Below are positions 9,881 to 46,934 of a stretch of 54,989 bases of DNA, in pieces. Location: positions 1-54,989 of the IMG/VR virus record IMGVR_UViG_3300033146_003879. One strand, 5' to 3'. How positions within the stretch are numbered: the first letter of the stretch is position 1; each line of letters starts with the position of its first letter. This DNA is from a virus. Lineage: Duplodnaviria; Heunggongvirae; Uroviricota; Caudoviricetes. The position numbers were made by a program, and so were the translations under genes. Below the pieces are notes generated by a model, which made no database searches, was not told where the DNA came from, and saw only the letters and a list, made by a program, of their open reading frames with translations.

Positions 9881-10152
9881 TAGAACATCTCCGTCTGCTC
9901 ATAAGGAGGCATTAACTCTACCTTTTGTTTAATGTCATCTAGCGTTGTCTGCCCAGACAGTTTTCTGTCATTAGCTACCTTGAACATGCGGAATTCCCGC
10001 GCAGGCATAAATGAGTACGGGACATGACTTCTGCGCGCACCTGCTTCGTAGAAGCGTCTTTGCTTCTCGCTAAACACTGGCGCTGCGGTAACAAAATTTC
10101 CGTTCGTGATGAAGAACCAACGTGGCCCCCCTTTAGTTTTCCTATTTGCCAT
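9880..10152 (-). CDS. Hypothetical basic protein with possible clamp-binding C-terminus (QTEMF)
   Basis: Likely start MANRK at 10152 after GGAGGG; ends ...GQTTLDDI...YEQTEMF. Confidence 0.55.
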   Translation of the reverse strand: MANRKTKGGPRWFFITNGNFVTAAPVFSEKQRRFYEAGARRSHVPYSFMPAREFRMFKVANDRKLSGQTTLDDIKQKVELMPPYEQTEMF

Positions 10153-10153
10153 G

Positions 10154-10456
10154 CTACTTCCCTCCGAGAATAAGCCTCTTAACAAAAGGCTTCTTGTCAC
10201 TTTTTATAAATGCCTTTCCAGGCATCCACCAGTATTTTGCGAGGTTGTAGTCAACAACCAGTCTGTTGTATGCTAAATCCATATTCCCAAGACTGTTCAG
10301 ATCTACCCCTGAAGACTTTAGAAAAGAGATGCGTTGCTTTACAATATACATCTTCCTCCGCAACACTCTGCATTCGCGGAGCCCCCTTACGACGACGTCT
10401 TTACTCAAAACACCATTATCCATAATAAATACCTCCTCAGTTAGTGTAAATTCCAA
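10154..10456 (-). CDS. Hypothetical protein
   Basis: About 90-100 aa ORF in a tightly packed minus-strand cluster. Confidence 0.5.
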   Translation of the reverse strand: MEFTLTEEVFIMDNGVLSKDVVVRGLRECRVLRRKMYIVKQRISFLKSSGVDLNSLGNMDLAYNRLVVDYNLAKYWWMPGKAFIKSDKKPFVKRLILGGK

Positions 10457-10472
10457 GTTTCGTAACCAAAGG

Positions 10473-11714
10473 CTACGAAATGTCCACTACGGACAGCATA
10501 ATCTTCGTTAGCAACTCACCATGCTCCCCATTAAGATCTCTTGCTGTGAACGTCAGCCTCTCTGGACCTATGATTCCTACGACATCCTCATTGAGATTGA
10601 TGTGTATCTGCTTAAACGTTAAGTCGTCTTCGTCGACATCTATGGTAACGATGATTGCTTTTCCGTGTTTGAAGGAACAGATGCTTTCACCAGAAATGCT
10701 TGAGCTATTACGGACATTAGAGATGAGGTCCGCGTTCCAGTTCGAGTTAAGCTCAACTAATGCCTCCCCGCTATGCACAAGGTGTGCTGTTGGTGCGTTC
10801 TGTGGTGGAGCAGACGGTCCTCCGTAAATGCCAATCTCTTCTAACTTAGGTCTGATTACTGATCTGTAGGTATTGAGGTGGTTGAATGTTGGGTGATCTC
10901 TTGCGTCGGCAACAAGCTCTCCTTGTGTGCCATAAACACTCTCAACTGGGAAGCTATCAACAGGAACGACACCCCCGTTGCGGTCAACGACGAATGTAAT
11001 GTGCCGTGTGTACCTGCTCCCATTCACGGAGTATGCGGCTACAAGTGTTGCTTCTGCAGCAACACCATCTTCTTGTAAGTCCGGTTCTGACACATGCACA
11101 TCGACCTCGGTGAATCCTCCAGTTGTTACCTGATCACGAGGTGCGTACCCGCGTGCAGCATCTGCGTTGCGTTGTGCTTGCCCGCGTGCAGCATCTGCGT
11201 TGCGTTGTGTCTGAGTTTGTTCCTGAGCCATCCGTGTTTCTTGCCGCCCTCTTATGGAGCAAGGAGCAGTCCCTCCAAGGATAGGTGCCTGTCTTCCGCG
11301 AAGAGCTGGAGCCAGTTTTGGTCGAACTGTCTCTCTAGCCAGTTCAACAATGCGTTGAAACTTCGGCATATTGGATACATCACATTCCGATTCTTTACCG
11401 TCCACGGTAATGACCCTTAGTATCCTATCTTTACCGTTAGTAACAAGCATAATAGAGACATCGTCTCGGATACCTACGGCTTTACCATCAAGTGTGATAC
11501 TCTGAAAGCCCTCTCCTTCATCAATGATTGCTCCAATCATTGAATGCCCAGATGTAAGACGAGTACCGTTAACGGTAAGTTTAACCCGGTTAAGAACGGC
11601 TAGACACGAGTTGTTGTCGTCACCTGCTTTGTCTTGCTGCGTTACGCCGGTGGCCGCCGAGGTAACAATCGCACGATAACCGGAGTTTCCGTACGAGTTT
11701 AATAATCGATTCAT
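10473..11714 (-). CDS. Hypothetical multidomain protein
   Basis: Likely start MNRLL at 11714 after AAGGAGGG; contains duplicated QRNADAARG. Confidence 0.65.
   Translation of the reverse strand: MNRLLNSYGNSGYRAIVTSAATGVTQQDKAGDDNNSCLAVLNRVKLTVNGTRLTSGHSMIGAIIDEGEGFQSITLDGKAVGIRDDVSIMLVTNGKDRILRVITVDGKESECDVSNMPKFQRIVELARETVRPKLAPALRGRQAPILGGTAPCSIRGRQETRMAQEQTQTQRNADAARGQAQRNADAARGYAPRDQVTTGGFTEVDVHVSEPDLQEDGVAAEATLVAAYSVNGSRYTRHITFVVDRNGGVVPVDSFPVESVYGTQGELVADARDHPTFNHLNTYRSVIRPKLEEIGIYGGPSAPPQNAPTAHLVHSGEALVELNSNWNADLISNVRNSSSISGESICSFKHGKAIIVTIDVDEDDLTFKQIHINLNEDVVGIIGPERLTFTARDLNGEHGELLTKIMLSVVDIS
11148..11209. repeat. Intragenic tandem duplication, 29 bp identical, period 33
   Basis: cccgcgtgcagcatctgcgttgcgttgtg at 11148-11176 and 11181-11209. 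Confidence 0.9.
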
Positions 11715-11746
11715 GGGGATTTCCCTCCTTAAAATGTATACGTACA

Positions 11747-11759
11747 CTTATACCATATT
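11747..11759 (-). promoter_or_regulatory. Class 1 motif AATATGGTATAAG
   Basis: Same core as five other sites; about 33 nt upstream of the 11714 start. Confidence 0.65.
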
Positions 11760-12278
11760 ATCAACAAGAATGGCTCCTTGTACACTGGGTATTATGATCT
11801 CGTGGTTTTCCTCAATGGCAGGTCGCCATACGACAGGGTGTCCTTTTAGTACGCACGGGACGGTACCGCAGTCATCATTCCAGTAGACACATACCTCGCA
11901 AGGCGCTCGATACTGTATATACTTTATTCTCCTTGCGACAAGCTTTCCGTACTTCCGAGATCGTTTTCTTCCGTATATCTCACTATGAAATACGATCCTC
12001 TCTCTTGTGAGATTTGATGCAAGCAGAGAAGCGCTTGTTATATTAACGTGGGAGCTCTCACTTATCTTTCTTGCCCGCAAGCAAGCACTACAGGCATTAG
12101 ATCCTCCTAGTATCCGTCGATTTGTAGTTCTAACGACGGGTGACATTAGGCATGAGCAGGTCGCCCATACCTGCTGTGTGCCAGTTACCTCGTCTGGACT
12201 ACCAACCTGCTTAACAGTCAATTTTCCTACAACATCACCTACTTGAAATGCTGGAAAAGTGCTATCTCTATCAGACAT
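11748..12278 (-). CDS. Cys-rich putative DNA-binding protein (homing-endonuclease-type N-terminal Zn domain)
   Basis: GDVVGKLTV...WATCSC...GGSNACSAC resembles the domain at 3-203; second Cys cluster CEVC...C...C. Confidence 0.55.
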   Translation of the reverse strand: MSDRDSTFPAFQVGDVVGKLTVKQVGSPDEVTGTQQVWATCSCLMSPVVRTTNRRILGGSNACSACLRARKISESSHVNITSASLLASNLTRERIVFHSEIYGRKRSRKYGKLVARRIKYIQYRAPCEVCVYWNDDCGTVPCVLKGHPVVWRPAIEENHEIIIPSVQGAILVDNMV

Positions 12279-12307
12279 ATAACAAACCTCGCGTAATGAC
12301 CTAACTA

Positions 12308-12336
12308 ACTCTACACTGAACAGAACATATCTTCAA
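12308..12336 (-). promoter_or_regulatory. Sigma70-type promoter TTGAAG-17-TAGAGT
   Basis: Upstream of 12278. Confidence 0.45.
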
Positions 12337-12361
12337 GTTTTCATCAATTAAAAAATAATAC

Positions 12362-12400
12362 TTTACACACCGTTCCACACCCCTATAATCTACAGGGGTG
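12362..12400 (+). promoter_or_regulatory. Promoter TTTACA-16-TATAAT with overlapping inverted repeat CACCCCT...AGGGGTG
   Basis: Inverted repeat 12378-12384/12394-12400 overlaps and brackets the -10. Confidence 0.5.
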
Positions 12401-12437
12401 CGGTATACCACTCTCGAAGCATACTAGGAGGTGACTC

Positions 12438-12620
12438 ATGTTCACAAAGTACGGTAACTCAGAAATAAAGAATCATCCGCACGGCGTCTGCAAGACATGC
12501 GGGATTCCATTACAAGAGCACGAGCACGAAATTAAGTTGTGTAGTGAGTGCGTTGCACGGGAGGTTGGTTCAGATAAGACTAAAGGTATTCTCCGTGATC
12601 AGCCTCGGCGCGATCCATAA
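12438..12620 (+). CDS. Small zinc-finger protein (CxxC-x13-CxxC)
   Basis: CKTC...CSEC; strong SD AGGAGGTG; own promoter. Confidence 0.6.
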   Translation: MFTKYGNSEIKNHPHGVCKTCGIPLQEHEHEIKLCSECVAREVGSDKTKGILRDQPRRDP

Positions 12621-12765
12621 ATTCCTTTACGTCGTTATACAAAGCCCGATCATTTTTCTTAAATACGCCCGCTATGGGCTTTCGTATCGTCTCATAGATA
12701 GCCACAGCGCCTACGGCCATAATAAAGGCAAAAGCCCCGGCTACCGCTACAAAGAATGTCATCAT
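12580..12765 (-). CDS. Small membrane protein
   Basis: N-terminal hydrophobic helix; GGAGG SD. Confidence 0.55.
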   Translation of the reverse strand: MMTFFVAVAGAFAFIMAVGAVAIYETIRKPIAGVFKKNDRALYNDVKEFMDRAEADHGEYL

Positions 12766-12799
12766 GACATACCTCCATCAAAATGTGTTTGTCAACAAA

Positions 12800-13000
12800 C
12801 TACCCTTTAAGTTTGTACTGCGCTTTCCCCCATGTTGAGTATACGCCGGATCCCGGTTTATCTACATCAACATCTTTAATCACTCTGCCATCTTCCAATA
12901 TAAGATCACCTTCTTTGTCCCGAGAGGCGTGTGCTCTTACTGGGAATACAGAGTCATTACCACGCAGGTTCTTCTTAACGGTATACACGTACGCGTTCAT
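12800..13000 (-). CDS. Hypothetical protein
   Basis: 66 aa; AGGAGGAG SD. Confidence 0.6.
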   Translation of the reverse strand: MNAYVYTVKKNLRGNDSVFPVRAHASRDKEGDLILEDGRVIKDVDVDKPGSGVYSTWGKAQYKLKG

Positions 13001-13008
13001 TGCTCCTC

Positions 13009-13158
13009 CTACTCATGCCTCATTTGTTTCTGGATCTTGTCAATCTCGTCAATTGCTTTCATGAACTCTTCTCTACTGTAGTAGTGGAGCACAAGACCCT
13101 TACCGAAACCAATCGAAGCCTTGAACTTTCCACCAACTCTCGCTACTCTAAGTTGCAT
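13009..13158 (-). CDS. Hypothetical protein
   Basis: Likely start MQLRV at 13158 after GAGGAGG. Confidence 0.5.
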   Translation of the reverse strand: MQLRVARVGGKFKASIGFGKGLVLHYYSREEFMKAIDEIDKIQKQMRHE

Positions 13159-13257
13159 ACAGCACCTCCTCTGTGATAGATCGAAAAACATAACACCTAC
13201 GGTCGGTTACTCGTAGTTGAGATCTCGGCCTTATAAAAATAGATGTTATTACGCCTA

Positions 13258-13271
13258 CTTATACCACATTT
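13258..13271 (-). promoter_or_regulatory. Class 1 motif AAATGTGGTATAAG
   Basis: Intergenic, at the head of the 12.6-13.2 kb small-gene cluster. Confidence 0.65.
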
Positions 13272-13281
13272 ACTGTAACTT

Positions 13282-13443
13282 TTACGCATCTACTCGAGGT
13301 TTGTTGGCGAGTGCGTAAGCCATCAACTTTAACTTAAGCACCTCTAATCGACTTATGTCGACGGCATACCGCTCAACATCTTCACTAAGGTCTTTAATTA
13401 CTGTTTCTACGTGTTTGATTTGGGAATCGTATTCGTGTGACAT
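13282..13443 (-). CDS. Small coiled-coil hypothetical protein
   Basis: Likely start MSHEY at 13443 after AGGAG. Confidence 0.5.
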   Translation of the reverse strand: MSHEYDSQIKHVETVIKDLSEDVERYAVDISRLEVLKLKLMAYALANKPRVDA

Positions 13444-13488
13444 GCGTACTCCTGCTAGAAATGTGTTCGTTAATAATGATAGCACACT

Positions 13489-16389
13489 TTACGAGATTGC
13501 CTCAATAACGGCAACATCTGCCTCTCCGTAGTTCGTCATGAATTTACAGTCAATGCCGATAGACACCGGTAATTCCTTATATCTTTTCTTTGGCATTTTA
13601 TCTACGATGTTTGTAAGTAGCTTCTTGACGGACTCTCCTCTCCCCTTCTCAATAGGTATTGACCCAACAACGCTATCGTGGACTGTGACAAACATCTTTA
13701 TTCCGTACCGTTGCCCATGTATTAGCAGTTCATATAGCATGTCCTGGAAGTAATCAGACGTGGTTGATTGAACCAACATATTGAGAAACTGTCTTACTGG
13801 TCTTCTGTCCCTGTAAAAGTTAGCTCTCTCCGCATATACAGCATCCGCGGCATCGGTGCGTACTGACTCTTGATACGCTTTAAGGAACTTGTGTATTGTG
13901 TATATTGCTGACTTTGTGAATCTCCTCCGTCTACCAAACACCGTCTGCGCGTACCCTGTCTGTTCTATCCTACTAACAACCGTATCGGAGAATGCGCGTA
14001 GAGCAGGATAGGCATCTGTCTCGAGCTTATCGAGCGTCTCCTTGGATTGACTGAGCATCTCTTCCTTTGATGTGCCGGGCTCAAAGCGCATCTGTTTAAC
14101 AAAGCCTGCATACCCAACCCCGTAGATCTTACCGAAGGTAGCTCGCTTTGCATTTGATCGCAGGTTGAGTAACTGTACTTGCCTGTCTGTCAATGGGGGC
14201 CCTGAGTCAGCATCATCAGCTTGCTTCGCTGCAAATGATTCTTCATAAGTGACGCCGTGAACAATACTTGATGCGTAACAATGGAGATCCGTACCTTCCC
14301 TGATAGCTTTCATAAGCTGTTTGTCAGGAACGTATACAGTTAGGACCTTTACTTCCGCATTCTTAAGATCAGCGTCAAATAGAGCATGCTCTTTGCTACC
14401 TGCGTGCAGTACCGGTTTAACATTTATAACGGTGTCCCCCACTCTTATCTTCTTCGGTATATTCTGGAAGTTAGGATCCATCGCACTTAACCTACCGGTA
14501 GCTGTGCCGTGCAGGTTAAGCGAGAAGTACACAATACCTTTGTAAGAATGTTGTATGAAAGGTATTAAGTAGGTGTTGCGTGCTTTTAGCGCCTTCTTGT
14601 AATTGAGCATATGTGGTATCCAAGGCTCTGTTTGAGCAAACATCATTATATGTTCTGAGTCTAATGAGTACTTGCCACTTCTCTCGTCAATAAGAAGTGT
14701 TAAATCGTACCCCTTTACACGCTTAAGGTAATCAAGTACCTCTTTATCTGACTTGTAGTTAAATGTTACCATGCCTTCAAGAATGTCGCTTTCGTCCTCA
14801 ATTAGTATGTCACACCGGGCTATCTCGCGCCGAGTTCTGGCATAATCAATAGGGAATCCATTATACTCCATCTCTGCAGCAACCCGCATTTGCCTTTCGT
14901 GCAAGTGGGTTATAACTTTAGGAATCGTCCCGCCTGTGTCTGCGAGTATTCTAGCAATCATCTTGTGGTATATCCTTGCCGTAGCGTATGCATCATCCAT
15001 ACCATAGCTAAGCAGTAAGCTTGTCGGTATATGCATATACTGCCCAGACCGTATCTCGACAAAGCCATCGCTCACCCGCTTTATCTCTGCATCTACTTCC
15101 TCTATCGTTGTTATGTCTTTTGCTTTTGGTATTGATATGTCGTTGAGGTAAGGCGCTTCGGCGAGTGCGTATGTGAGGCGTGACTTATGAGATGGGTAGT
15201 GCAAGTAGCGCGGTATCTGACTATCCATGGCCATTAAGCCTATCTTGAGCGCGTTTCCGAGAGACCCATAAGTTTCGTTCAGATAGTGGTCAAGTAGCAT
15301 CGTATCCGCTAACTTACCTGCAGGGGTTCTTCCTACGAAGTGTTTCATCCATTTCATATCGTACTTGCCATTCTGGAATACGTATGTCCAGTCAACTTTG
15401 CTTATAATCTTCTTGAGCATCCTGTACCCTAACTCAGGGTTGTTACCTTTGCGGTACGGGTGATCTACTATAAAGGCGAAAGTGAGGTCATCTGTACCTG
15501 CCGAGAACTGGCAAGATAATATACGTTGGCCTTTAAAGTGCGGATTAAGACCTGATGTCTCGAGATCTATTGCTACAGGGGAGTTTGTCGTATCGTCCCC
15601 TCCTTCTTTCTTGTTGTTTATTGAGAAATAAGAATCAATACGGAGAATTGCTGACTCCAGATCCTCTTCGCTCTTTAGGATCTCTCCCTTTACGGATACG
15701 GCTTCTTGTACGTCTTGTATGATGTCAAATATCTCCGACGCTAGATGGAACCCTTTTTCTTGATTCTTGTCCAGCTGTGCCGGAGTAGGAACCACCATAA
15801 GCGTGCGTTTTATACCGCTTATCTCTGCCGTGAAGGGTCGCAACATAAGAGCTTTCGTGGTGCTTCCGTATGGTTTATCTACGTTTGCCATCATATCAAG
15901 CATAATAGCGGAGTCAGCAACCATCACTTTTGTCACAGAAGGGTTTCTGATGAGCCAGGTATACAGTTCTGAGGCTAGACGATGCTTAGCTGCCGCCTTT
16001 AGTATTGAGTAGTCACCGTGCTGTCCGAGCAATACTCGAGGATGCTTTCCCTTATCATCCTCTATAAGATATATACAGTCTGACAAGAAGCTACGGGATA
16101 TACGCTGCCTGTTTCTCGAGTTATCTTTACTTCCAAGACTCTTTGTTCTCGGAATATCTGACGGTATGTATAGAACAGTGTCTTGTGTCAGTTTCGTGTA
16201 CTCTGCTACCGCCTCTCTATATTCTTCCGCGTGCGCGTACCTGACGGCGACATCAATTGAGCTTGCTCCGATAAGTGCTGTTATTGAATCGTAACTAACA
16301 GGTGCATACAAGTGTAACTTGCCATAAGCCGTTATCTCCTCTACCCTTCGATGATTTTGGCGTCTGCTATTCTTCTCAAAGTTCTCCAT
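13489..16389 (-). CDS. polA: Family A DNA polymerase with 3'-5' exonuclease and a degenerate UDG-like N-terminal region
   Basis: ExoI AIDLETSGL, ExoII QNGKYD, ExoIII YGMDD; TATGRLS; motif A DADLKNAE; motif B RSNAKRATFGKIYG; motif C VHDS. Confidence 0.95.
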   Translation of the reverse strand: MENFEKNSRRQNHRRVEEITAYGKLHLYAPVSYDSITALIGASSIDVAVRYAHAEEYREAVAEYTKLTQDTVLYIPSDIPRTKSLGSKDNSRNRQRISRSFLSDCIYLIEDDKGKHPRVLLGQHGDYSILKAAAKHRLASELYTWLIRNPSVTKVMVADSAIMLDMMANVDKPYGSTTKALMLRPFTAEISGIKRTLMVVPTPAQLDKNQEKGFHLASEIFDIIQDVQEAVSVKGEILKSEEDLESAILRIDSYFSINNKKEGGDDTTNSPVAIDLETSGLNPHFKGQRILSCQFSAGTDDLTFAFIVDHPYRKGNNPELGYRMLKKIISKVDWTYVFQNGKYDMKWMKHFVGRTPAGKLADTMLLDHYLNETYGSLGNALKIGLMAMDSQIPRYLHYPSHKSRLTYALAEAPYLNDISIPKAKDITTIEEVDAEIKRVSDGFVEIRSGQYMHIPTSLLLSYGMDDAYATARIYHKMIARILADTGGTIPKVITHLHERQMRVAAEMEYNGFPIDYARTRREIARCDILIEDESDILEGMVTFNYKSDKEVLDYLKRVKGYDLTLLIDERSGKYSLDSEHIMMFAQTEPWIPHMLNYKKALKARNTYLIPFIQHSYKGIVYFSLNLHGTATGRLSAMDPNFQNIPKKIRVGDTVINVKPVLHAGSKEHALFDADLKNAEVKVLTVYVPDKQLMKAIREGTDLHCYASSIVHGVTYEESFAAKQADDADSGPPLTDRQVQLLNLRSNAKRATFGKIYGVGYAGFVKQMRFEPGTSKEEMLSQSKETLDKLETDAYPALRAFSDTVVSRIEQTGYAQTVFGRRRRFTKSAIYTIHKFLKAYQESVRTDAADAVYAERANFYRDRRPVRQFLNMLVQSTTSDYFQDMLYELLIHGQRYGIKMFVTVHDSVVGSIPIEKGRGESVKKLLTNIVDKMPKKRYKELPVSIGIDCKFMTNYGEADVAVIEAIS

Positions 16390-35403: not shown

Positions 35404-36111
35404 TTAGTGTGTGGAACAAGCCTTCTTTGTGTTTTGTTTAAATATAAAAGAATCGAGCCTTGTTTCTGCAGTCTCAAGACGAATCTGAGATTGTTTTATA
35501 CCGAACTCTTTCGCGGTTCGTATAGGGCTACCTTCATCAGTTCCCATGCCTTCTTTCACAAACAAGAGGATACTTTCCTGTAATGTCAGAGAACCTGACC
35601 TGCGCAGGCGCTCGATAAATGCGGGGTAATCCGTTTGTACAAGGTGTCCGTCTCGCGTGTTGTGCATAGCATCACCTAAGTGCATTCCTGATTTTGCTAA
35701 CATTGTTCGCATAACAGCGTCTTCGCCAGGATCAGCTTCCTCATCAGTGGCGAGTTCGGAAAAGGTACTCGCCTCAACACTCTTTATTGTTACTTGATTA
35801 CGGTATGCCCCAAGGACGGCCATCTGAATGCCCCCTGTTGCATACGTTATGAACTGTACTTCGTCAGATATATCGGTGTTATACTTTAGCAACGCATCGT
35901 AGAAACCTTTCCACGCGGCGCCGATAAGCTCATCCTTATCAGTAACGTCTTTTCGTAATTTGTAATAGTACTTGGCTTGCTTGAGTACAACTCCCTTGTA
36001 GTCTACAATAAGTTTCCGCATCGCTGCGTCTTTTTCATGCTGTAGGCTATGGGGATCTTGTATTATCTTAATTACTGCAACGGTATCTTCACGGGACAAC
36101 GAACGTTTCAT
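35404..36111 (-). CDS. Sigma70-family RNA polymerase sigma factor
   Basis: Region 2 pattern AMRKLIVDYKGVVLKQAKYY...DELIGAAWKGFYDALLKYN...QFITYATGGIQMAV; weak region 4 HTH (TAKEFGIKQSQI); likely start MKRSL at 36111. Confidence 0.8.
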   Translation of the reverse strand: MKRSLSREDTVAVIKIIQDPHSLQHEKDAAMRKLIVDYKGVVLKQAKYYYKLRKDVTDKDELIGAAWKGFYDALLKYNTDISDEVQFITYATGGIQMAVLGAYRNQVTIKSVEASTFSELATDEEADPGEDAVMRTMLAKSGMHLGDAMHNTRDGHLVQTDYPAFIERLRRSGSLTLQESILLFVKEGMGTDEGSPIRTAKEFGIKQSQIRLETAETRLDSFIFKQNTKKACSTH

Positions 36112-37094: not shown

Positions 37095-38786
37095 ATGGCA
37101 ATAAAGAAACTTAACATCGCTAGCTCTGTGTTGGCGGCGTCACTACTTACCCTTGATAGTGGGGGTCACCCTGACTATAAGGGGTATCCTATGTTTGCGA
37201 ATCTCCTTGATATGCCTTACGTATCAGATCTTACAATACTAGCATCAAGGCAGGTCGGAAAATCAATATATGTTGCAACACGTGCGGTAATACGGAGTGT
37301 AACTCCTGATCATAAGTACGTCTATATCGCCCCGTCAGAAAGGCAGGCCACCGACTTCTCGAGGCTAAAGCTAGGTATCATATTAGAGAAGTCTAAGTTT
37401 GCTCGGAAGCTTCTCATGCATAGAGATAGTCCTCTCCTTCCTCCTGGAGAAAAAGCAGCGCTTAACTCAATAACCAATGATGTATACATGAAGAAGTTTG
37501 CTAACTCTTCGTACATAAAGATTGGGTATGCAGCTGATGCTAAAGGAGTTGAGCGTGTTCGTGGAGGTACCGCAGACGAGCTTACTATTGATGAGGCTCA
37601 GAGTACCGACCTCGATGCCCTCATGCCTGTACTTAAGCCGATGCTTACTCAAGCGAAGCGTCCGATAATGAATACATACGGAACTCCATTGAACGAGAAT
37701 GATTCACTCGTTATTCGTTTTAAATCATCAACACAACATACGGCAGTTGTTAAGTGTGAAGGCTGCAATAGATGGACAACACTAGATAACTTTAGGATCA
37801 TCGGCCTCAATGGTCTTATTTGCCCACGCTGTGGAAAACCCATTGATGCTCGTAACGCAAAGTTTGTTCCGATGAATCCGGGATCAGCTCACCTAGGCGT
37901 GCATATCAACCGTCTCATGCTTCCTAGTACAACATCTACAGAGATAAAGTGGCAACAACTTATTAATGATATCGAGGATCCGAACACTACCGAAGACGGT
38001 GCTATGCGAGAGATATTCGGTAGACCTGCGGGTAGTTCTTCTGAGATGATTGATGAGAGGGATATAGAAAAAATAGCAGTTCTTCCAGCTATATACGTAG
38101 ATAAGACCTTTGAGCAGGTCATCACGATCGCAAATGCTGAACGGATACGCCTCGGTAAGTCTCCCTATAAGTTTATGCACGCAATAGATTGGGGTGGAGG
38201 GGCACTGAGTATAGCCGGCGGTGGGCTAGAGACAGAAAGCCGAACCGCAGAAGTTCTTATTGGTATGCATTACGATAAGGGGTATCTCGGTTTCGATATA
38301 CTGTATCATAATCTATACCCTATGGCACACCCGAGGCACGCTCTCGACTCACTCCTCAATAATATGGGTTACCTACCAGTAAAATCTATCGTCACCTGTG
38401 ATGCTCTTGGTGGAACATTCGCTATATCAGACATACGATCTACACTAAATAAGATGGCAAAGGGACATAAGTTTCTTCCTATACAACTAGGTAGTATTGC
38501 TGCCGATAAGACACATAATGATTTACAAGATAGGATTGTGGTATCAAAGAGTAACGTGGTTACAAAATTCTTCATTGCTCTTCTACATGAGAAAATACGC
38601 ATGCAGAAAGATCCGCATGTTATAAGAGAGCTTACTCGGCAGTTTCTAGCGGAGACTGAGATTGAGAATCATAACGGAAAGCGAATCTGGTTAAAAAAAT
38701 CAGGAATCAACGATGATATCCTTATGGCCTCCATATTTGGTTTTGTTGCAGGGGCTTTCTTTCACGAGCAGGCACTACTTAAGTAA
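37095..38786 (+). CDS. terL: Terminase large subunit (GpA-like, with Zn ribbon)
   Basis: Walker A ASRQVGKS, Walker B LTIDEAQ, coupling motif YGTP, CEGC/CPRC, nuclease AIDWGG and NDDILMA. Confidence 0.9.
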   Translation: MAIKKLNIASSVLAASLLTLDSGGHPDYKGYPMFANLLDMPYVSDLTILASRQVGKSIYVATRAVIRSVTPDHKYVYIAPSERQATDFSRLKLGIILEKSKFARKLLMHRDSPLLPPGEKAALNSITNDVYMKKFANSSYIKIGYAADAKGVERVRGGTADELTIDEAQSTDLDALMPVLKPMLTQAKRPIMNTYGTPLNENDSLVIRFKSSTQHTAVVKCEGCNRWTTLDNFRIIGLNGLICPRCGKPIDARNAKFVPMNPGSAHLGVHINRLMLPSTTSTEIKWQQLINDIEDPNTTEDGAMREIFGRPAGSSSEMIDERDIEKIAVLPAIYVDKTFEQVITIANAERIRLGKSPYKFMHAIDWGGGALSIAGGGLETESRTAEVLIGMHYDKGYLGFDILYHNLYPMAHPRHALDSLLNNMGYLPVKSIVTCDALGGTFAISDIRSTLNKMAKGHKFLPIQLGSIAADKTHNDLQDRIVVSKSNVVTKFFIALLHEKIRMQKDPHVIRELTRQFLAETEIENHNGKRIWLKKSGINDDILMASIFGFVAGAFFHEQALLK

Positions 38787-39645: not shown

Positions 39646-39676
39646 GTTCTTATACCACATTTGATAATGCTATAAT
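39646..39676. promoter_or_regulatory. Back-to-back promoters: minus class 1 CAAATGTGGTATAAGAAC (39646-39663) and plus TGCTATAAT (39668-39676)
   Basis: Both motifs recur elsewhere; they face divergent genes. Confidence 0.65.
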
Positions 39677-39711
39677 TTATGTGTTAGCAATTGAATACCC
39701 TGGAGGCGACA

Positions 39712-40212
39712 ATGTTATCTTGGGCGACTATCATGAGCTTCGTTATGAAGCACAAGACCGCCATAGCAATTTCACTAGTACTTGTAGTAACTCTCATAGC
39801 ATTTGGTGTTGTGCGGCTGCAACTAAGGCATTGCCGGTCTAAATACGATAAACTCAAAAAGCAGTTTGACGCAACGCTCGTTGCGCAAGAAACGTGTGAA
39901 AAGTCTGTAGCAGCTATTAACGGAGCTGTTCTTACTGCGAAAAAAGATTGCGCGCGAGAGAAGGCGTCTCTAAAGGCAGCGTATGAGTTTGGCAAGGAAG
40001 AGAGAGATAAATATCATAGCAAGGTGGACAAGCTTTTCGCCGACAAAAAGAAAGGGGACAAAGCCAATGGTGCTGTTACACCTGTGACAGAAGTAACTCC
40101 GGATGGCGGCATCTTTGATTATCAGGCAGAGGTGACAGACTTTTATAACGAAGTGAATGAGAAGTGGAATGCATTCGCTGATAAGTATGAGGGGGGACGA
40201 GATGAGGAATAA
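39712..40212 (+). CDS. Putative i-spanin (Rz-like)
   Basis: Single N-terminal TM helix then coiled coil; overlaps the lipoprotein gene; likely start 39712 after GGAGG. Confidence 0.6.
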   Translation: MLSWATIMSFVMKHKTAIAISLVLVVTLIAFGVVRLQLRHCRSKYDKLKKQFDATLVAQETCEKSVAAINGAVLTAKKDCAREKASLKAAYEFGKEERDKYHSKVDKLFADKKKGDKANGAVTPVTEVTPDGGIFDYQAEVTDFYNEVNEKWNAFADKYEGGRDEE

Positions 40213-40540
40213 ATTGTTGCTGGTACTCACTCTTATCGCGATGATGTTCGCGACATCCTGCGTTGAGGTACGGTACATAACAAAAGTACAGAAAGTGTAC
40301 AGGACTCCAGCGAAACTGGCAATACCAACGCTGCCTCGCCTCTCCTTGTACGAAGACGGCGATAGTGTGTTTACGAAAGAGAACTACAAGAAATTATTGA
40401 AAGAGTACAGCGACTCGCTTGTGTTCACGAAGCAATTGTTAATGCTTATAAAGGAACATAACAAGCTTATCGCTGAGATAGAAGCAGAAGAAAAGGCTGC
40501 GGCAATAACAGAGAAAGAGGAGACTAAAGATGCACATTAA
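40202..40540 (+). CDS. Putative o-spanin (Rz1-like lipoprotein)
   Basis: MRNKLLLVLTLIAMMFATSC lipoprotein signal with lipobox-like Cys; Pro-containing segment. Confidence 0.65.
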   Translation: MRNKLLLVLTLIAMMFATSCVEVRYITKVQKVYRTPAKLAIPTLPRLSLYEDGDSVFTKENYKKLLKEYSDSLVFTKQLLMLIKEHNKLIAEIEAEEKAAAITEKEETKDAH

Positions 40541-40790
40541 AGACTTGGTTAGAGAACATGACAAGGACCGCCTATCAAAAGGCGCTATTATGATGTGGAT
40601 AACATTCGCCGTAGCAATAGCTTACTGGCTGACTGGTATTATTACGCAGCATTCTATGCCGATACCTGAAGGATTGCTGAGCTTCTTGCTTGCTCTTCTC
40701 GGCTACAACGTTGCACGTAGAGGAACCGACGGGGCCTCTGCACTGCTTGCAAAAATTAAGAAGCAGTCTATAGACGCAATGCCCAAATAA
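40530..40790 (+). CDS. Putative holin (2 TM)
   Basis: 86 aa, two hydrophobic helices, basic C-tail, next to the spanin-like pair. Confidence 0.6.
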   Translation: MHIKDLVREHDKDRLSKGAIMMWITFAVAIAYWLTGIITQHSMPIPEGLLSFLLALLGYNVARRGTDGASALLAKIKKQSIDAMPK

Positions 40791-40815
40791 ACACTAAGCA
40801 CAGAAGGAGAGTACA

Positions 40816-43800
40816 GTGTCACAAAAGTTATATTCAATTGGATACGGTTCTACGCAAGATCAGATAGAGGATTCTATGAGCAAAGGGTTCCGCAATGTCG
40901 AGTTTAACGACATGTACGACGGGTCTACTTATAAAATGGACAACATTTCATTTAAGCGTAAAGCTGATGCTAACTCTCCTGAGGTGTTCAAGGAAGCCTT
41001 ACTTGGTAATAGAAGTCTCCTTGCTCAAGTTCATGGTGATATATATCGGTATGATAAAGATGGTAAGAAGGATAGGGTTGCGGCTAACGTGCATATTGCT
41101 AGTGTTCCTCAGATGCTTGACTCTCGTGGTACGTTTGTTGTGCGGGGTAGTGATTATAATATCATTAACCAGCTTCGTAAGAACTCTGCACCATACATCA
41201 CACGTGGTAAAACCGATACCGACATTAAGGCTACATTTAACCTTGCAAAGGGTCGTAACTTCCATATAGAAATGAATCCAGCAGATTCTATGTTCTATGT
41301 AAAGATAGGTACATCGAGTGTGGTTATAAAGGCGCTCGCTGAAGTATTGGATATCACTAGATATGATATGGTTAAGGCTATTGGCGAGGATATGGTGAAG
41401 CTTAATTGGGACAATGTATCTCCGTCGCTCGTGCGGTCTAACCTTGTGAAACTATATAAGAAGGTGTTTGAGTATAAACACGATAACCCTTCTAATTTTA
41501 CAGACCATGAATTGAAGACACTCTTGTCAGAGTACTTCAAGACAACGGTTATGGATCCGCATACTACGAAGCTTTTATATAAGCAGGAGATGTCAAGCGT
41601 TGATAAGGCAGCACTACTCAAGATACTGTCCGAGTACATGAAGATCTATAAGAAAGAAAAAGCTCCGCATAACCAAGATGAGTTATATTATCAGAGAGTT
41701 ATGACACCAAATCTGTTGTTTGAAGATCGTATCCATAAGACGGCCCCTACAATAAACAACACAATAAAGTTCAATCTTGCAAGAGCAAAGTCCGCTGATG
41801 ATTACAAGAAAGTATTTAGTAATATATACAGCAAGCCTCTTATATCGATGGTAGCAGGGTCTGATCTCGCACGCATTGATCCGCAGTATAACCCTCTCGG
41901 CGTAATGGTGACTCCGTCATCTATAACCCCTCTCGGTATGGGCGGCGTCAATGATTCTATGGCTATACGTGACTCACAACGAGACATACATGTTTCGTCT
42001 ATGGGAGTTATAGATCCACTCGTATCACCACAAGGTGGTAATGTTGGTATCTTGCTTCGTACTACTGACAACTTCAAGGTTGATGAGAAGGGTCGTGTTC
42101 ATCTCAAAGTTCGTGATAAGAAAGGGAAGGTAGGCCACACATCACTGGCCTCTCTTAAAGACAAGTATCTTGCACTACCTGATGTTCGACCAGGAACAAA
42201 AAAGAGAACGGTGTCTGCTGTACACGACGGGGAGATCGTGAATGTGTCTAAGGATAAGATAACACATTACTTCCCAAATGGCCCGGAAGATACACTTAAC
42301 TCACTCGACAGATTGTTTCCTATGGCGAACGCTGTACAAGGTAACAGGAACTTTATGAGTACGAGACAGATAACGCAAAGTCTCCCTTTGGCATACAAAG
42401 AGCTCCCGTACATACAAACGGAATCGTCTACTGGTAAGAATATGTATGAGAAAGTACGTGAGGATCTCGAGTCTCTTATGCCGTTACGATCTCCCGTTGA
42501 CGGAGTCGTTGAAAGTGTTAAGGATGGTGTAATAACTATAAAAGACGATGACGGAAAGAAGCACGAAGTGAAGTATGCTCGACATCTTCCTCTCGCAACG
42601 AATACCGGTATTCACCAAATACCAACTGTTCATCGTGAAGAGCGTGTCAAGAAACGTCAGATTATACTTAAAGATAACTACACGGTCGATGGTAAAATCG
42701 CATTTGGAGTGAACCTAAAGACGGCGTTCATGCCGTATAAGGGGTATAACGCAGAGGATGCTGTTGTAATATCAGAGACAGCGTCAAAGAAATTGATGTC
42801 TGTACATTACTACAAGTATGACATACTTACTGGTGATGAGAACATTATTGGTAAGAAGTCTTTCCTTAATAAATTCCCCGATAAGTTTCAGCCTGCACAA
42901 GTAGCAAACATAGAAGCTAACGGCATAATAACTAAAAATACACGTATAAATTATGGTGATCCGCTGGTGCTTGCCCTGGCTAAGGTTCTACCTGATGAGT
43001 CCCTGATGAAGATTGGAAGAATAAGTAAGGATATTGTAGTTACACTTGCGGACTCGTCTCTTGTGTACGACCATCACGCAATCGGTGAGGTTGTTGAGAT
43101 ATCTGAACGATCGAAGGTGCTTACGGTAACAGTAAAAACCCTTGAGAGGGCGGTTGTTGGTGATAAGGTTGCTGGTATGTACGGAAATAAGGGGGTTGTA
43201 TCTGTAGTTATCCCTGATGATAAAATGATGCGTAATGAGGAAGGGGATGTTGTTGACGTTATTTACGCAGCATCCGCCGTACCTAGTCGTATGAATCCTG
43301 CGCAAATACATGAACAGGCACTATCGAAGATCGTAAAGAAGAAAGGATTGAAGCCGTATATGTTTCAGCCTCTAACGAACCCTGGCGGTAAGCCGCTTGA
43401 TGAGTTTGTCGAAAAAGAGATGAAGAAACACGGTGTTAGTGATAAAGAGTTCCTTATTGATCCTATAACCGGGAAGAAGACAGACAGGCCTGTTGCGTCC
43501 GGTCAGATGTACACACTCAAATTGCTTAAGGGTGATAAAGATGCTGCAGCGCGTGGCCTCGGTCCTGCATACACATCAAACAAGCAGCCGGCTAAGGGCG
43601 GCTCGGAGGGAGCGAAAGCTATTGGGCAAGCAGAGTTCTACGCACTTGTTGCACATAATGCAAGAGCTACTATGGCAGACTTCAGTTCAATAAAAGGACA
43701 GCACAATGCAGATTACTGGCGTAAGTCTTTGTACGGTGCCCCACCAACTCCTGTTGGAGAATCATTTGCGTTTAAGCGATTCAAAGCAAACCTTACATCG

Positions 43801-46800
43801 GCGGGTTCAGTATTTAACGAAACAAAGGATGGGTATCAACTACTTCCTTTGACAGATAAAGTAACGAATCAACTTGCCGGGCATCGTAAAGTGAAGACTC
43901 CTGCGTTGTTGCGCAGTAAGACCCTTGAGCCTATTAAGAATGGGTTGTATGATAGGGCAATCACTGGTGGTGTTGACGGTACACTATGGTCTAAGATAGA
44001 ACTAGAAGATGGCATGGTGTCACCAATGATAGAGGACTATGTTCGTATCTTACTCGGTATGAAGAAAGCTGATATCAGAAAGTGGCAAGCGGAGCACACT
44101 ACTGCAGAAATGCGAAAGGAGCTTAACAAGATTGACGTATCTTCCAGGATACGCGAACTAAAGGCAAAGGGTAAGAATTCTGGTAAATTAACAAACACCG
44201 AGATAAAGTTGCTGCGTTTCTTACAGAACATAAAAGACAAGGGTACTAACCTTGCTGATCTTATAATAACATCGCTTCCTGTTCCTCCTCCTATCTATAG
44301 ACCGATGACGCAGCTCGGAGATGGTAGCATCCAGATGGCAGACTCTAACCACTTCTATAAGGATATCCTTATTGCTAATGAGGGACTGAAAGATGTTAAG
44401 GGGCTTAAGTCGGTATCAGGTGAGGTTAAAGACGAACTCATCTACAATGTCCATGCTCTCGTAGGAACGGAGAAAACAAAAAATAGAACACTCGCCAATA
44501 AAGGAACAAAAAGCATACTTGAAGCTATCGGCGGTGTTGGTTCTCCGAAGTACGGTTTTGTTCACGCTAATCTTGTTAAAAAGAATCAGGATTTGGCGGG
44601 GCGTGCACGTATTATCCCTAATGCAGATCTCGATATGGATGAAGTTGGTATACCTACGTCTATGGCGTGGGAGCTGTATAGCCCCTTCATAAAGAAGAGT
44701 CTTGTTAGTTCTGGTATGACGCCTATAGATGCAGCTAAAGCAATAACACACAAGTCTACTCCTGCGAAGCGTGCTCTTGTTTCCGAAGTTGATAAGAGAC
44801 CAGTGCTCATAAATAGAGCGCCGACGTTACATAGGTTTGGTATACTTTCGATGAAGCCTCGGCTTGTATCTGGAAATAGTATGCAGGTGTCTATGTTCCA
44901 CACCGCTCCGTTTAATGCTGATTTCGATGGAGATGCGATGCAGGTCCATGTACCGGTAACGCAAGCTGCTATTAGAGAAGCAGACAAGATGCGCATGTCG
45001 CAGAATCTGTTAGGTGACGTGTCTGCAGATCAGCTTATTATGGCATTAACACCAGAGACTATTATTGGATTCTATGATAAGGCGAGGTATGACCGGTCAA
45101 CTGTCGTACGTGATCTTAAGAAGATACTCCCGGCCAATGTTAGTCTTCCTGCTACGTATGACAAGAAGGGGTTAAAACAGTTATCGTTGGGTATTGCGAA
45201 GTCAGGTGCTGCTGATATAGCAGGGATATTCCAGCGCGTGAAAGTGCTCGGCGATGAGTACGCAACACAATCTGGTCGTACTGTTGGTGTTGAAGATGTT
45301 TCTGGTGCAGGCATGAGGAAAGAGAAGGACGCGATACTTGGTAAGTATAAGAAGAAGCTAAGTAGGGTAAAGATGGGGACACCTGAGTATGCGGTTGAAC
45401 TTGAGTCCGCGCAGAAGGAAGTGCAGAGCCTTGCAAAGAAACACCCGGGAGATGTTGGTGAGATGCTACGTGCCGGAGCTAAGGGGAGTGACAACCAGAT
45501 ATCAGGTATGATACTCTCGCCGGTGATTGCGTATAACCCGCACGACCCGATACGCACAGCGCGGATGACTGAGAGCTCATATAGTGAAGGCCTTAACTTT
45601 AACGATTTCTGGAACCAGGTGGCAAAGGCTCGTACGGACATGGTGTCTACTGCTATGAGTGTTGCTGTTCCTGGATCTCTTGCTAAGCTCATGAATGCAG
45701 CGGTTAACAAGATGGTTATATCAGAGTTCGATTGTGAGACAATGGACGGAGTGTTTGTTGACCCATCTACTGACGACGTCCGCGGGTCACTGCTTGCTGA
45801 GAAAGTAGGTATATTTAATAGAAATACTATTATCAATACACTCAACGAAGCTGCTATTAGTAAAAATAAGAAGATAAAGATACGTTCTCCTCAAACATGC
45901 CAGTCTACTGAAGGTGTGTGTGCTCGATGTTACGGCGCTGATGCTATGGGTGTGTTGTATAAGGTAGGAGTAAATGTAGGCGTCCGCGTTGCTCAAGGTG
46001 TGTCTGAGCCTATTGCTCAGATGGCACTTGATAGTAAACACGGAGGAAGATCTATTACGAAAGATATTGGGCAGGGAGGCCTCACGACAATTACCAACAT
46101 ATTTAGTTCTGATGCTACAAAACCTGGTATGGCTATCGTTGCGAAAGAGGATGGTACTGTTAAATCAACATCCGTGCTACCTTCTGGTGCGACAATTATA
46201 AAGATGGTAGACGGAGCATCTTACACGGCGGCTCCAGATGTCACGGTGAAGGTGCATGAAGGGTCGTCTGTAGCTCGAGGTGACTCTATCACCAGCGGAG
46301 TAATCCCATTCACTGATGTTATTGAAGCTAAGGGTATTGTTGCAGGTAGAGCAGCGCTTGCCGGACAGCTTCGGGAGTCGCTTGATGAGAACGGTAGGCA
46401 CTTGTCTACAAGAGTACATGATCTCATCGGTAAAGCGGCGGCAAACTACGTAACACTTATGGCTGACCTCGATAGTCACCCTGCTGGGACAACTATAACA
46501 TATAGTCAACTGAAGCAATCCCTCAAGGATCACAGTTATCCGAAAAAATTAGCGCTTGTTACTGAAGGTATGCAATTAGGTGAGGAATTCGGTGACCTCT
46601 CTGCGGGAACAATTATCACGAAGAAAGAAGCGCGTAAGATCGCAGCTGCTAAAACGATACCAGAAACCGATAAGAAGTTTATCCGTATCGTTGAGAATAA
46701 AGTCCCGTTTGAGTGGGTAGCTCGTACTCTCTATACTGCAGGACTTGCTGATGATGACTGGATGCATCACATCGCAGCCCGATACATTAAAAAAGAACTC

Positions 46801-46914
46801 ACCTCGGCAACAGCAGAAGGTGATGTTTCTAAAAAGAAAACACTGAGTCCGGTAAATGTGTGGATGCAAGGCAAGGCTATGAAGAACGATCCCGATACAC
46901 CTTACTACGAATAA
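40816..46914 (+). CDS. rpoBC: Single-polypeptide fused beta-beta' multisubunit-type DNA-directed RNA polymerase
   Basis: Beta motifs GYNAED, GDKVAGMYGNKGVVS, VPSRMN and GQMYTLKL. In the same ORF follow beta' motifs LPVPPPIYRP, NRAPTLHR, NADFDGD (44914-44934), GAKG, CQSTEGVCARCYG and the trigger-loop AQGVSEPIAQMALDSKH. Confidence 0.97.
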   Translation: MSQKLYSIGYGSTQDQIEDSMSKGFRNVEFNDMYDGSTYKMDNISFKRKADANSPEVFKEALLGNRSLLAQVHGDIYRYDKDGKKDRVAANVHIASVPQMLDSRGTFVVRGSDYNIINQLRKNSAPYITRGKTDTDIKATFNLAKGRNFHIEMNPADSMFYVKIGTSSVVIKALAEVLDITRYDMVKAIGEDMVKLNWDNVSPSLVRSNLVKLYKKVFEYKHDNPSNFTDHELKTLLSEYFKTTVMDPHTTKLLYKQEMSSVDKAALLKILSEYMKIYKKEKAPHNQDELYYQRVMTPNLLFEDRIHKTAPTINNTIKFNLARAKSADDYKKVFSNIYSKPLISMVAGSDLARIDPQYNPLGVMVTPSSITPLGMGGVNDSMAIRDSQRDIHVSSMGVIDPLVSPQGGNVGILLRTTDNFKVDEKGRVHLKVRDKKGKVGHTSLASLKDKYLALPDVRPGTKKRTVSAVHDGEIVNVSKDKITHYFPNGPEDTLNSLDRLFPMANAVQGNRNFMSTRQITQSLPLAYKELPYIQTESSTGKNMYEKVREDLESLMPLRSPVDGVVESVKDGVITIKDDDGKKHEVKYARHLPLATNTGIHQIPTVHREERVKKRQIILKDNYTVDGKIAFGVNLKTAFMPYKGYNAEDAVVISETASKKLMSVHYYKYDILTGDENIIGKKSFLNKFPDKFQPAQVANIEANGIITKNTRINYGDPLVLALAKVLPDESLMKIGRISKDIVVTLADSSLVYDHHAIGEVVEISERSKVLTVTVKTLERAVVGDKVAGMYGNKGVVSVVIPDDKMMRNEEGDVVDVIYAASAVPSRMNPAQIHEQALSKIVKKKGLKPYMFQPLTNPGGKPLDEFVEKEMKKHGVSDKEFLIDPITGKKTDRPVASGQMYTLKLLKGDKDAAARGLGPAYTSNKQPAKGGSEGAKAIGQAEFYALVAHNARATMADFSSIKGQHNADYWRKSLYGAPPTPVGESFAFKRFKANLTSAGSVFNETKDGYQLLPLTDKVTNQLAGHRKVKTPALLRSKTLEPIKNGLYDRAITGGVDGTLWSKIELEDGMVSPMIEDYVRILLGMKKADIRKWQAEHTTAEMRKELNKIDVSSRIRELKAKGKNSGKLTNTEIKLLRFLQNIKDKGTNLADLIITSLPVPPPIYRPMTQLGDGSIQMADSNHFYKDILIANEGLKDVKGLKSVSGEVKDELIYNVHALVGTEKTKNRTLANKGTKSILEAIGGVGSPKYGFVHANLVKKNQDLAGRARIIPNADLDMDEVGIPTSMAWELYSPFIKKSLVSSGMTPIDAAKAITHKSTPAKRALVSEVDKRPVLINRAPTLHRFGILSMKPRLVSGNSMQVSMFHTAPFNADFDGDAMQVHVPVTQAAIREADKMRMSQNLLGDVSADQLIMALTPETIIGFYDKARYDRSTVVRDLKKILPANVSLPATYDKKGLKQLSLGIAKSGAADIAGIFQRVKVLGDEYATQSGRTVGVEDVSGAGMRKEKDAILGKYKKKLSRVKMGTPEYAVELESAQKEVQSLAKKHPGDVGEMLRAGAKGSDNQISGMILSPVIAYNPHDPIRTARMTESSYSEGLNFNDFWNQVAKARTDMVSTAMSVAVPGSLAKLMNAAVNKMVISEFDCETMDGVFVDPSTDDVRGSLLAEKVGIFNRNTIINTLNEAAISKNKKIKIRSPQTCQSTEGVCARCYGADAMGVLYKVGVNVGVRVAQGVSEPIAQMALDSKHGGRSITKDIGQGGLTTITNIFSSDATKPGMAIVAKEDGTVKSTSVLPSGATIIKMVDGASYTAAPDVTVKVHEGSSVARGDSITSGVIPFTDVIEAKGIVAGRAALAGQLRESLDENGRHLSTRVHDLIGKAAANYVTLMADLDSHPAGTTITYSQLKQSLKDHSYPKKLALVTEGMQLGEEFGDLSAGTIITKKEARKIAAAKTIPETDKKFIRIVENKVPFEWVARTLYTAGLADDDWMHHIAARYIKKELTSATAEGDVSKKKTLSPVNVWMQGKAMKNDPDTPYYE

Positions 46915-46934
46915 GGGGAGACTTAGATCTCCCC
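46915..46934. terminator. Hairpin between convergent genes (GGGGAGA-6-TCTCCCC)
   Basis: 7 bp stem directly after the RNAP stop; followed by TTATT on the minus strand. Confidence 0.55.

Follow-up and report, generated by a model that had tools for sequence, protein, structure and literature searches.

A one-chain beta-beta' RNA polymerase of bacterial type in a tailed-phage genome, and the large phage family to which it belongs

The stretch of DNA described here, called the window below, comprises the first 55 kb (54,989 nucleotides) of the 182,989-bp IMG/VR virus record IMGVR_UViG_3300033146_003879, a tailed-phage (Caudoviricetes) genome estimated to be 88% complete. At positions 40816-46914 of its plus strand lies a single open reading frame (ORF) with a GTG start and no internal stop, which encodes a protein of 2032 amino acids (aa), named P0001. 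This protein is a bacterial-type RNA polymerase (RNAP) core that unites all of beta and nearly all of beta' in one chain, with every catalytic element intact. Genes for a terminase large subunit (37095-38786) and a family-A DNA polymerase (13489-16389) are found nearby on the same virus record, and the ORF therefore sits in a phage genome and not on a cellular contig. The RNAP gene is single-copy in the 183-kb record, in which no second RNAP gene was found, and its best PHROG matches are families of 'unknown function'. The gene and the features within it are as follows.

40816-46914, plus strand: fused beta-beta' RNAP gene (protein P0001), from the ORF and its translation, Pfam, PDB matches and models of the two halves
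40816-43830, plus strand: complete beta module, aa 1 to ~1005, protrusion and lobe through C-terminal clamp segment (model alignment to 9dvs_C)
43159-43194, plus strand: beta barrel motif GDKVAGMYGNKG, aa 782-793 (motif search and alignment)
43831-43941, plus strand: direct junction of beta to beta', aa ~1006-1042 (alignments)
43942-44004, plus strand: site of the missing beta' zinc finger, GLYDRAITGGVDGTLWSKIEL (GLYD...TGG...WSKIEL, Cys-free), aa 1043-1063 (alignment)
44914-44934, plus strand: catalytic NADFDGD, aa 1367-1373 (motif search)
45733-45930, plus strand: second zinc site, C1640, C1695, C1702 and C1705 (alignment with E. coli C814, C888, C895 and C898)
46039-46041, plus strand: trigger-loop histidine H1742, corresponding to E. 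coli beta' H936 (alignment)

Pfam matches follow one another along the chain in the order Rpb2_3 (356-414), Rpb2_6 (561-929), Rpb1_1 (1136-1240), Rpb1_2 (to 1392) and Rpb1_5 (1592-1948). The beta C-terminus passes directly into the beta' N-terminus at about aa 1005/1006 (nucleotide (nt) ~43830), and the beta' module occupies aa ~1006-2032. An earlier note on this DNA, made from its letters alone, had read beta and beta' in this order in one uninterrupted ORF with a junction near 43800-43900, an intact NADFDGD, a lost beta' N-terminal zinc finger, a second zinc site that is kept and an altered beta motif, and the alignments bear it out on each of these. The junction segment (aa ~1006-1042) replaces E. 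coli beta' 1-18 and aligns with beta' 19-60, while E. coli rpoC residues 68-99, with the four Zn1 cysteines, have no counterpart in P0001. The aspartates D1369, D1371 and D1373 of the catalytic motif are invariant among homologues. The four cysteines of the second zinc site, contained in DCETMDG (aa 1639-1645) and CQSTEGVCARC (aa 1695-1705, nt 45898-45930), are invariant in 16 fused homologues. The bridge helix and the trigger-loop histidine align with those of E. coli; the histidine is invariant in the family, the SI3 insertion is absent from the trigger loop, and the secondary-channel rim helices are shortened. In the beta barrel motif, GDKxAGRHGNKG in the canonical form, the active-site lysines K784 and K792 are kept and are invariant in 90 family members. 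The alteration concerns the positions of E. coli R1069 and H1070, which are M and Y in the subclade of P0001; R is retained in the family consensus at the M position. The positions of E. coli beta D516, H526 and S531, the main rifampicin-contact residues, are occupied by P, T and T in P0001, and because all three are substituted, the sequence suggests that the fused enzyme would not be inhibited by rifampicin.

The best sequence matches in PDB are a bacterial beta (8i23_C, 1.7e-48) and the beta' of B. subtilis (6wvj_D, 1.1e-67), with archaeal and eukaryotic subunits matching at 1e-15 to 1e-23 and the AR9 phage subunit 7s00_C at 1.1e-17. AlphaFold2 models of the two halves, residues 1-1030 and 1006-2032, were built with family alignments and reached pLDDT values of 91.8 and 89.5, respectively; the junction region, common to both, is modelled confidently in each. 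The beta model superposes on Synechococcus 9dvs_C with Z 33.0 and rmsd 3.9 Å over 859 residues (chain range 15-984), and the beta' model on E. coli 6wmu_D with Z 31.8 and rmsd 4.1 Å over 898 residues (chain range 19-1367); with C. thermocellum 8i24_D, 950 residues of the beta' model are aligned. Since the half-models superpose end to end on bacterial subunits, P0001 contains the whole of beta and nearly the whole of beta' and is no fragmentary barrel protein. The structure prediction thus agrees with the sequence matches in giving a still clearly bacterial-like enzyme, and from its conserved residues P0001 is, with very little doubt, predicted to be an active RNAP core.

The earlier note had also called the enzyme minimised, about 700 aa shorter than E. 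coli beta plus beta', and this claim stands only in part. In an alignment of 22 fused phage proteins and 21 pairs of cellular beta and beta', drawn from more than 10 phyla, about 216 columns are occupied in at least 80% of the cellular sequences while at least 80% of the phage sequences have a gap there. The longest of these phage-empty runs are beta' 68-99 (the zinc finger, 32 aa), beta' 153-175, beta 2-21 and the beta' tail from 1369. Most of the 700-aa deficit, however, arises because E. coli, with insertions of its own, was chosen as the reference: beta 225-265, 307-416 and 935-1046 and beta' 946-1133 (the trigger-loop insertion) are E. coli-specific and absent in P0001. Totals in the aligned set are 2306-3038 aa for the cellular and 1993-2132 aa for the phage enzymes, and P0001 is about 12% (~270 aa) below the smallest cellular enzymes sampled (Patescibacteria, ~2300 aa). 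P0001 is without any lineage-specific insertions, without the beta' zinc finger and without a few short segments.

The junction is conserved throughout a very large family. When 1.84 billion cluster representatives were searched with aa 540-1420, a segment that includes the junction, 1716 proteins were retrieved at 1e-30 or better, and each of the 150 best representatives matches across the junction, nearly all in one continuous stretch. At the zinc-finger site all 133 aligned members, with less than 50% mutual identity, conform to GLFD-x3-TGG-x2-G-x2-W-x-[HK]-I-x-L and possess no cysteine. Family members from many hosts show 25-60% identity, and they are ~25-29% identical to any cellular enzyme. 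P0001 is one member of this family, cultured members of which are already in GenBank, and the shared junction motif indicates that a large phage clade inherited both the fusion and the loss of the zinc finger from its ancestor. A search for shorter, unfused close relatives retrieved only family fragments at contig ends (P0216 and P0217) and truncated cellular beta' proteins; within its reach no separate beta' was found in the near clade.

At least 561 IMG/VR loci, on contigs of up to 205 kb, were found to encode relatives when an alignment was used as the query, whereas a single-protein query retrieved none. The fusion state was inspected in the best 80 of them. The junction lies in a single frame in all 80, in one of them only with TGA read as Trp. 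About 50 of the 80 contain a fully fused single ORF of ~2000-2190 aa (one of 2469 aa), and about 28 encode beta with the N-terminal part of beta' (1450-1520 aa), the remaining beta' being encoded elsewhere. At positions 10001-16050 of the 205.5-kb record IMGVR_UViG_3300025602_000002 (L086), the only in-frame interruptions are TGA codons, at 10178, 10484, 11048, 12860 and 15953, and with these codons translated as Trp the RNAP becomes a single ORF of 2024 aa, which points to recoding of TGA in this phage. Inserts were also seen in the family. In the junction motif of the member P0168, an intein-like insert of ~480 aa occupies the very position of the deleted zinc finger, and other members, P0011 and P0021 among them, have LAGLIDADG or intein Pfam matches; together these point to repeated invasion of the RNAP gene by mobile elements.

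Among the GTDB species genomes the sole close relative is a 3.8-kb fragment in a metagenome-assembled genome. The next 78 matches are ordinary cellular rpoB-rpoC loci at 25-29% identity (E 1e-54 to 1e-71), and wherever a contig covers both genes, beta and beta' are separate ORFs. A quick maximum-likelihood tree (LG+G4, 1970 columns) was computed from the 22 phage and 21 cellular enzymes, without an outgroup, without Helicobacter or Wolbachia and without the published sequences of the multisubunit-RNAP-encoding Caudovirales (mReC). A single long branch with 100% SH-aLRT support divides the phage from the cellular enzymes, so that P0001 is not nested in a sampled cellular clade. The cellular side includes Chloroflexota, Patescibacteria, Bacteroidota, Campylobacterota (Sulfurimonas and Sulfurospirillum), Aquificota and E. 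coli, and P0001 is placed outside both Campylobacterota and Pseudomonadota. The fused RpoBC proteins of Helicobacter and Wolbachia resemble P0001 in having the beta C-terminus joined to the beta' N-terminus in one chain. They differ in their length (2839-2890 aa, against 2032 aa for P0001) and in working with alpha2 and omega, and they retain the zinc finger and lineage insertions. Against the corresponding NCBIfam models P0001 scores 322.7 bits (NF007172, Helicobacter; cut-off 5372) and 299.2 bits (NF011417, Wolbachia; cut-off 4632), so that the cut-offs are missed about 15-fold.

Cultured relatives identified by tblastn are Salmonella phage Arash (OQ632216) and Vibrio phages D69, D148 and D181. 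Their genomes are ~180-187 kb in size, close to the 183-kb record of P0001, and their beta is joined to beta' via the same Cys-free GLFD..TGG..W...L junction. In contrast to the continuous P0001, these phages cut beta' after the active site and encode the remainder, ~606-609 aa, in a second gene; by NCBIfam model coordinates the split falls near the cyanobacterial rpoC1/rpoC2 break. Arash gp206 (1525 aa) covers residues 59-1435 of the query with ~28% identity (E 7e-157), and its beta' C-terminal part, gp216 (606 aa), is encoded 4.8 kb away, nine other genes intervening. Virion mass spectrometry of Arash gave the most spectra for gp206 (beta plus the N-terminal part of beta'), placed gp216 fifth and detected the sigma factor gp10 (PMC10585845). 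The RNAP genes of the Vibrio phages are annotated as hypothetical, and the region matched in D148 and D181 carries a homing endonuclease annotation; an Rfam search of the 640-nt gap in the D69 gene found no group I intron. Shared local synteny with Arash was considered and rejected, as the Arash 'portal' gene 5' of the RNAP is not homologous to the terminase-like gene found here.

Three other groups of phage RNAPs may be compared with this family. The mReC are tailed phages with deep-branching RNAPs (Weinheimer & Aylward 2020, PMC7481178). P0001 shares with them a tailed-phage contig, beta and beta' found by cellular profiles, NADxDGD and a position outside the cellular clades; like it, they are uncultured and in part of similar genome size, and most of their listed beta (~1000-1030 aa) and beta' (~900-1020 aa) have the sizes of the P0001 halves. 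Unlike P0001, they are listed in Supplementary Data 2 with beta and beta' (at least 800 aa each) as separate ORFs. The text of that paper mentions fusion for crAssphage only (PMC7481178), and among the contigs of its supplement that were checked, none is identical to the loci of the present family.

The phiKZ and AR9 enzymes (e.g. PDB 7S00) are phage-encoded two-barrel RNAPs that likewise work without alpha or omega, and these jumbo phages carry one of their RNAP sets inside the virion (PMC7824862, PMC13282480). Two or three polypeptides make up each of beta and beta' in these enzymes, whereas P0001 is one gene; they come as two paralogous sets with no sigma homologue, against a single RNAP copy in the record of P0001; and they are far more divergent, since P0001 is matched by 7s00_C at 1.1e-17 but by bacterial enzymes at 1e-48 to 1e-67. 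The RNAPs of crAss-like phages and YonO carry both barrels in one polypeptide, and that of the crAss-like phages is virion-borne. They differ from P0001, which is recognizable over its full length, in that, outside the barrel motifs, profiles detect no resemblance between them and cellular beta and beta' (PMC7481178). The fused, alpha-less and zinc-finger-less architecture is thus a variation on the known bacterial-type and phage RNAPs, and a description of it was not found in the literature consulted. No biochemical or structural study of the fused phage family was found there either, and the later papers in it, among them a 2026 jumbo-phage review, make no mention of the family or of any fused form.

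In agreement with the earlier note, no alpha subunit gene (PF01000, PF01193) was found in the window, nor in the rest of the 88% complete record; omega (PF01192) is likewise not found in the record. Alpha (PF01000) was found in none of 20 related records, eight of which are at least 90% complete. The features around the RNAP gene that bear on its expression and on its possible partners are the following.

35404-36111, minus strand: divergent sigma-70-family-like gene (P0211, 235 aa), candidate specificity factor (PHROG 351, 4e-9)
39670-39676, plus strand: CTATAAT promoter-like element, heading the four-gene block 39691-46914 that ends with the RNAP gene
40804-40809, plus strand: Shine-Dalgarno sequence AAGGAG, 6 nt 5' of the GTG start codon (sequence)
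46915-46934, no strand assigned: possible terminator, a palindromic stem-loop GGGGAGA-N6-TCTCCCC directly 3' of the stop codon, between convergent genes

The N-termini of RNAP homologues align to the GTG start at 40816, just behind the Shine-Dalgarno sequence. The sigma-like gene is situated 4.6 kb from the RNAP gene. Its product has four homologues at 54-74% identity and was aligned by hhalign, in region 2 only and with a probability of 82%, to clear sigma genes of related RNAP phages; Pfam gives 12 bits for sigma r2 and does not find r4, and the WW dyad of sigma region 2.3 is GG. With P0211, tblastn against phage records gave no match and phmmer against PDB chance matches only. A complex prediction of the N-terminal 430 aa of beta' with P0211 scored 0.00 and is evidence neither way. 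Sigma70_r2 genes are found in seven of the 20 relatives, and in the three of these whose positions were worked out they lie ~3-11 kb from the RNAP gene; in the relative P0003 the distance is 8 kb. Beyond the window, a 925-aa ORF (59640-62417, minus strand) shows a weak Sigma70_r2 match (15.9 bits, E 0.002) at 59820-59927 and has CTATAAT upstream; the match may be due to chance, or the ORF may encode a second sigma-like factor in fused form.

Two promoter-like elements were recognized. Class 1, TGTGGTATAAG, is often accompanied genome-wide by TG(T/C)AAAA 14-15 nt upstream. Its nine exact 12-mers are all on the minus strand, and its 8-mer core occurs 30 times on the minus against 5 times on the plus strand; of the 9-mer TGGTATAAG, the window contains 6 copies where 0.47 would be expected. 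About 25 well-placed copies are found in the genome, almost all on the coding strand and many with the TGYAAAA box. Copies of TG(T/C)AAAA-N14-15-TGTGGTATAAGA are located in the window, on the minus strand, at 240, 11747, 13258, 25243, 39649 and 50857. The class 1 element stands ahead of groups of small genes, with its highest density at 162-180 kb of the genome. The listed copies in intergenic spacers all carry a G at the position where the sigma-70 -10 element ends in a conserved T, which would imply a specificity other than that of the host. The second element, CTATAAT, is found in the window at 8411, 28590, 35389, 36177, 39670 and 54958, with more copies beyond it. In the genome, 19 of its 33 copies are intergenic, in 7.5% of the sequence (P = 1e-13), and nearly all of these are 15-47 nt 5' of co-oriented start codons, mostly of structural or large genes. 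The presence of this element ahead of both the RNAP block and structural genes fits late synthesis of the enzyme, and its placement taken with the Arash proteomics would fit packaging. Canonical sigma-70 promoters around the RNAP gene are not above chance (18 against 15.1 expected).

From these results we consider it probable that P0001 is a phage-owned, bacterial-type RNAP core in one chain, independent of alpha, directed by a phage sigma factor, made late and possibly packaged. In the clamp of cellular RNAP structures, the C-terminus of beta is adjacent to the N-terminus of beta'. To join the two directly by a peptide link would cost nothing and would ensure 1:1 assembly, and the covalent tether may have taken over the assembly platform otherwise provided by the alpha dimer, so that the core would work without alpha or omega. 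That the tether replaced the role of alpha is suggested because the link is universal in the family, the beta' split is variable and alpha is never found; independence from alpha is accordingly rated as likely, if well short of certain. A core of one chain (or two) would result, with a phage sigma factor as its partner. Promoter recognition would then come from a phage sigma-70-family factor, here the 235-aa product of 35404-36111, an assignment towards which we lean only slightly. The RNAP gene would be transcribed together with late structural-type genes, and the enzyme would be packaged into virions and injected, a step that we regard, by analogy with Arash, as quite possible but somewhat short of probable. 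The injected enzyme would read the early promoters TGYAAAA-N14-15-TGTGGTATAAG independently of host RNAP. Host factors use the zinc finger and the rim-helix tips, as known from work on E. coli, and loss of both would uncouple the enzyme from them. In its strongest form, held only tentatively, the fused chain and the 235-aa sigma-like protein would be a complete two-protein holoenzyme that has no alpha or omega, is packaged and carries out early transcription from its own promoters; it would be the simplest natural bacterial-type transcription machine.

Several observations weigh against this interpretation. E. coli beta and beta' that were tethered experimentally reportedly still needed alpha, and the phage could depend on host alpha. 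Since the record is 88% complete, its missing part could contain an alpha-like or accessory gene, and such a gene could also have escaped Pfam through divergence. The match of P0211 to TIGR02937 (2.2e-5, 24.2 bits) is under the cut-off of 42.9, its region 4 has no independent support, and it could equally serve the host core. The raw count of CTATAAT in the window is not above chance, its placement alone being so, and the putative late class of the RNAP gene is assigned from gene content alone. Arash is only ~28% identical to P0001 and has the two-chain form; fully fused members are known from genes alone. The Arash authors caution, moreover, that abundant non-structural enzymes may contaminate virion preparations (PMC10585845).

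The fused enzyme could instead be a middle or late polymerase that is made after infection and not injected, with host RNAP reading the early genes and the phage enzyme only the later classes; the virion signal of Arash could be such a carry-over. The early-type motif resembles an extended -10 element (TGnTATAA) that the host sigma-70 holoenzyme might use, and only one RNAP gene is present here, whereas the RNAP-injecting phiKZ-type phages have a second set. We nevertheless find this rather doubtful. The final T of the -10 element is replaced by G in all listed spacer copies, and a block placed behind the same element as the structural genes would come late for reading middle genes. The rank of gp206 and gp216 among the Arash virion proteins, first and fifth by spectrum count (PMC10585845), also speaks against it.

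Dependence on the host may alternatively concern assembly, in that the fused chain would assemble on host alpha2, and perhaps omega, after infection and would not be self-sufficient. The fold is near that of bacterial beta and beta' over almost its whole length, so the surfaces that contact alpha may survive; a phage protein that could stand in for alpha was not found, and engineered E. coli beta-beta' fusions reportedly still assemble with alpha. Such a hybrid enzyme is unlikely, as conserved docking on many different host alphas is less easily reconciled with the many hosts of the family, the 25-60% identity within it and the ~25-29% identity to cellular enzymes. P0001 also lacks the C-terminal tail of beta' (E. 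coli 1369-1383 and further), which presumably contacts omega, and if the enzyme is packaged as in Arash, host alpha would need to be packaged too. The alpha-less enzymes of phiKZ and AR9 are a precedent for a core that works on its own (PMC13282480).

It is highly improbable that the junction arose by mis-assembly or a frameshift, or that the gene is a cellular fused rpoBC of the Helicobacter or Wolbachia type on a mis-binned contig, given the same in-frame junction in more than 130 independent relatives, the terminase and DNA polymerase neighbours on the 183-kb virus record, the roughly 15-fold shortfall from the fused-RpoBC cut-offs and the 78 cellular loci that are only 25-29% identical and keep beta and beta' separate where a contig covers both.

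The favoured reading, an alpha-independent one-chain core, is of interest more for the family than for this single locus. In the textbook view, bacterial RNAP needs the alpha dimer to assemble beta and beta'. If the phage enzyme manages without alpha, omega and the zinc finger, the parts that cellular RNAP truly requires become testable, and a one-gene core with one sigma factor would be a tractable structural model and a candidate orthogonal transcription system. Strategies with an injected multisubunit RNAP would, if the reading is true, extend beyond phiKZ, AR9, N4 and crAss to a large clade of environmental phages of 130-205 kb, and the family may bear on the debated origin of deep-branching phage RNAPs.

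Some minor features of the locus and of the record remain to be described. No tRNA genes were found in the window, nor any Rfam families in its 35-48 kb part. The stem-loop at 46915-46934 has a folding energy of -13.4 kcal/mol with a z-score of -1.47, which is not significant, and is possibly, on weak support, a terminator. The genes at 39691-40790 might be labelled a 'lysis operon'; this label is without support, as they have no Pfam match and a single PHROG match of unknown function. The last of them, an 86-aa ORF (40530-40790, plus strand) that adjoins the RNAP gene on its 5' side, is hydrophobic and membrane-like by eye and has no family match; in Arash, too, a small ORF (gp205, 92 aa) precedes the RNAP gene. 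Two giant ORFs are located beyond the window, at 116830-123750 (plus strand, 2306 aa) and 131276-136090 (minus strand, 1604 aa). Neither has a Pfam or PHROG match, hence no family sign of a second polymerase. The contig of another relative, P0004, carries a 2255-aa ORF divergent from its RNAP gene. Finally, the 60.5-kb contig of P0003 (ENA ERZ1426827) encodes an adenylosuccinate-synthetase homologue 8 kb 5' of the fused RNAP, of a kind (PF00709) not found in the genome of P0001; it is possibly PurZ-like, hinting at 2-aminoadenine DNA in that relative.

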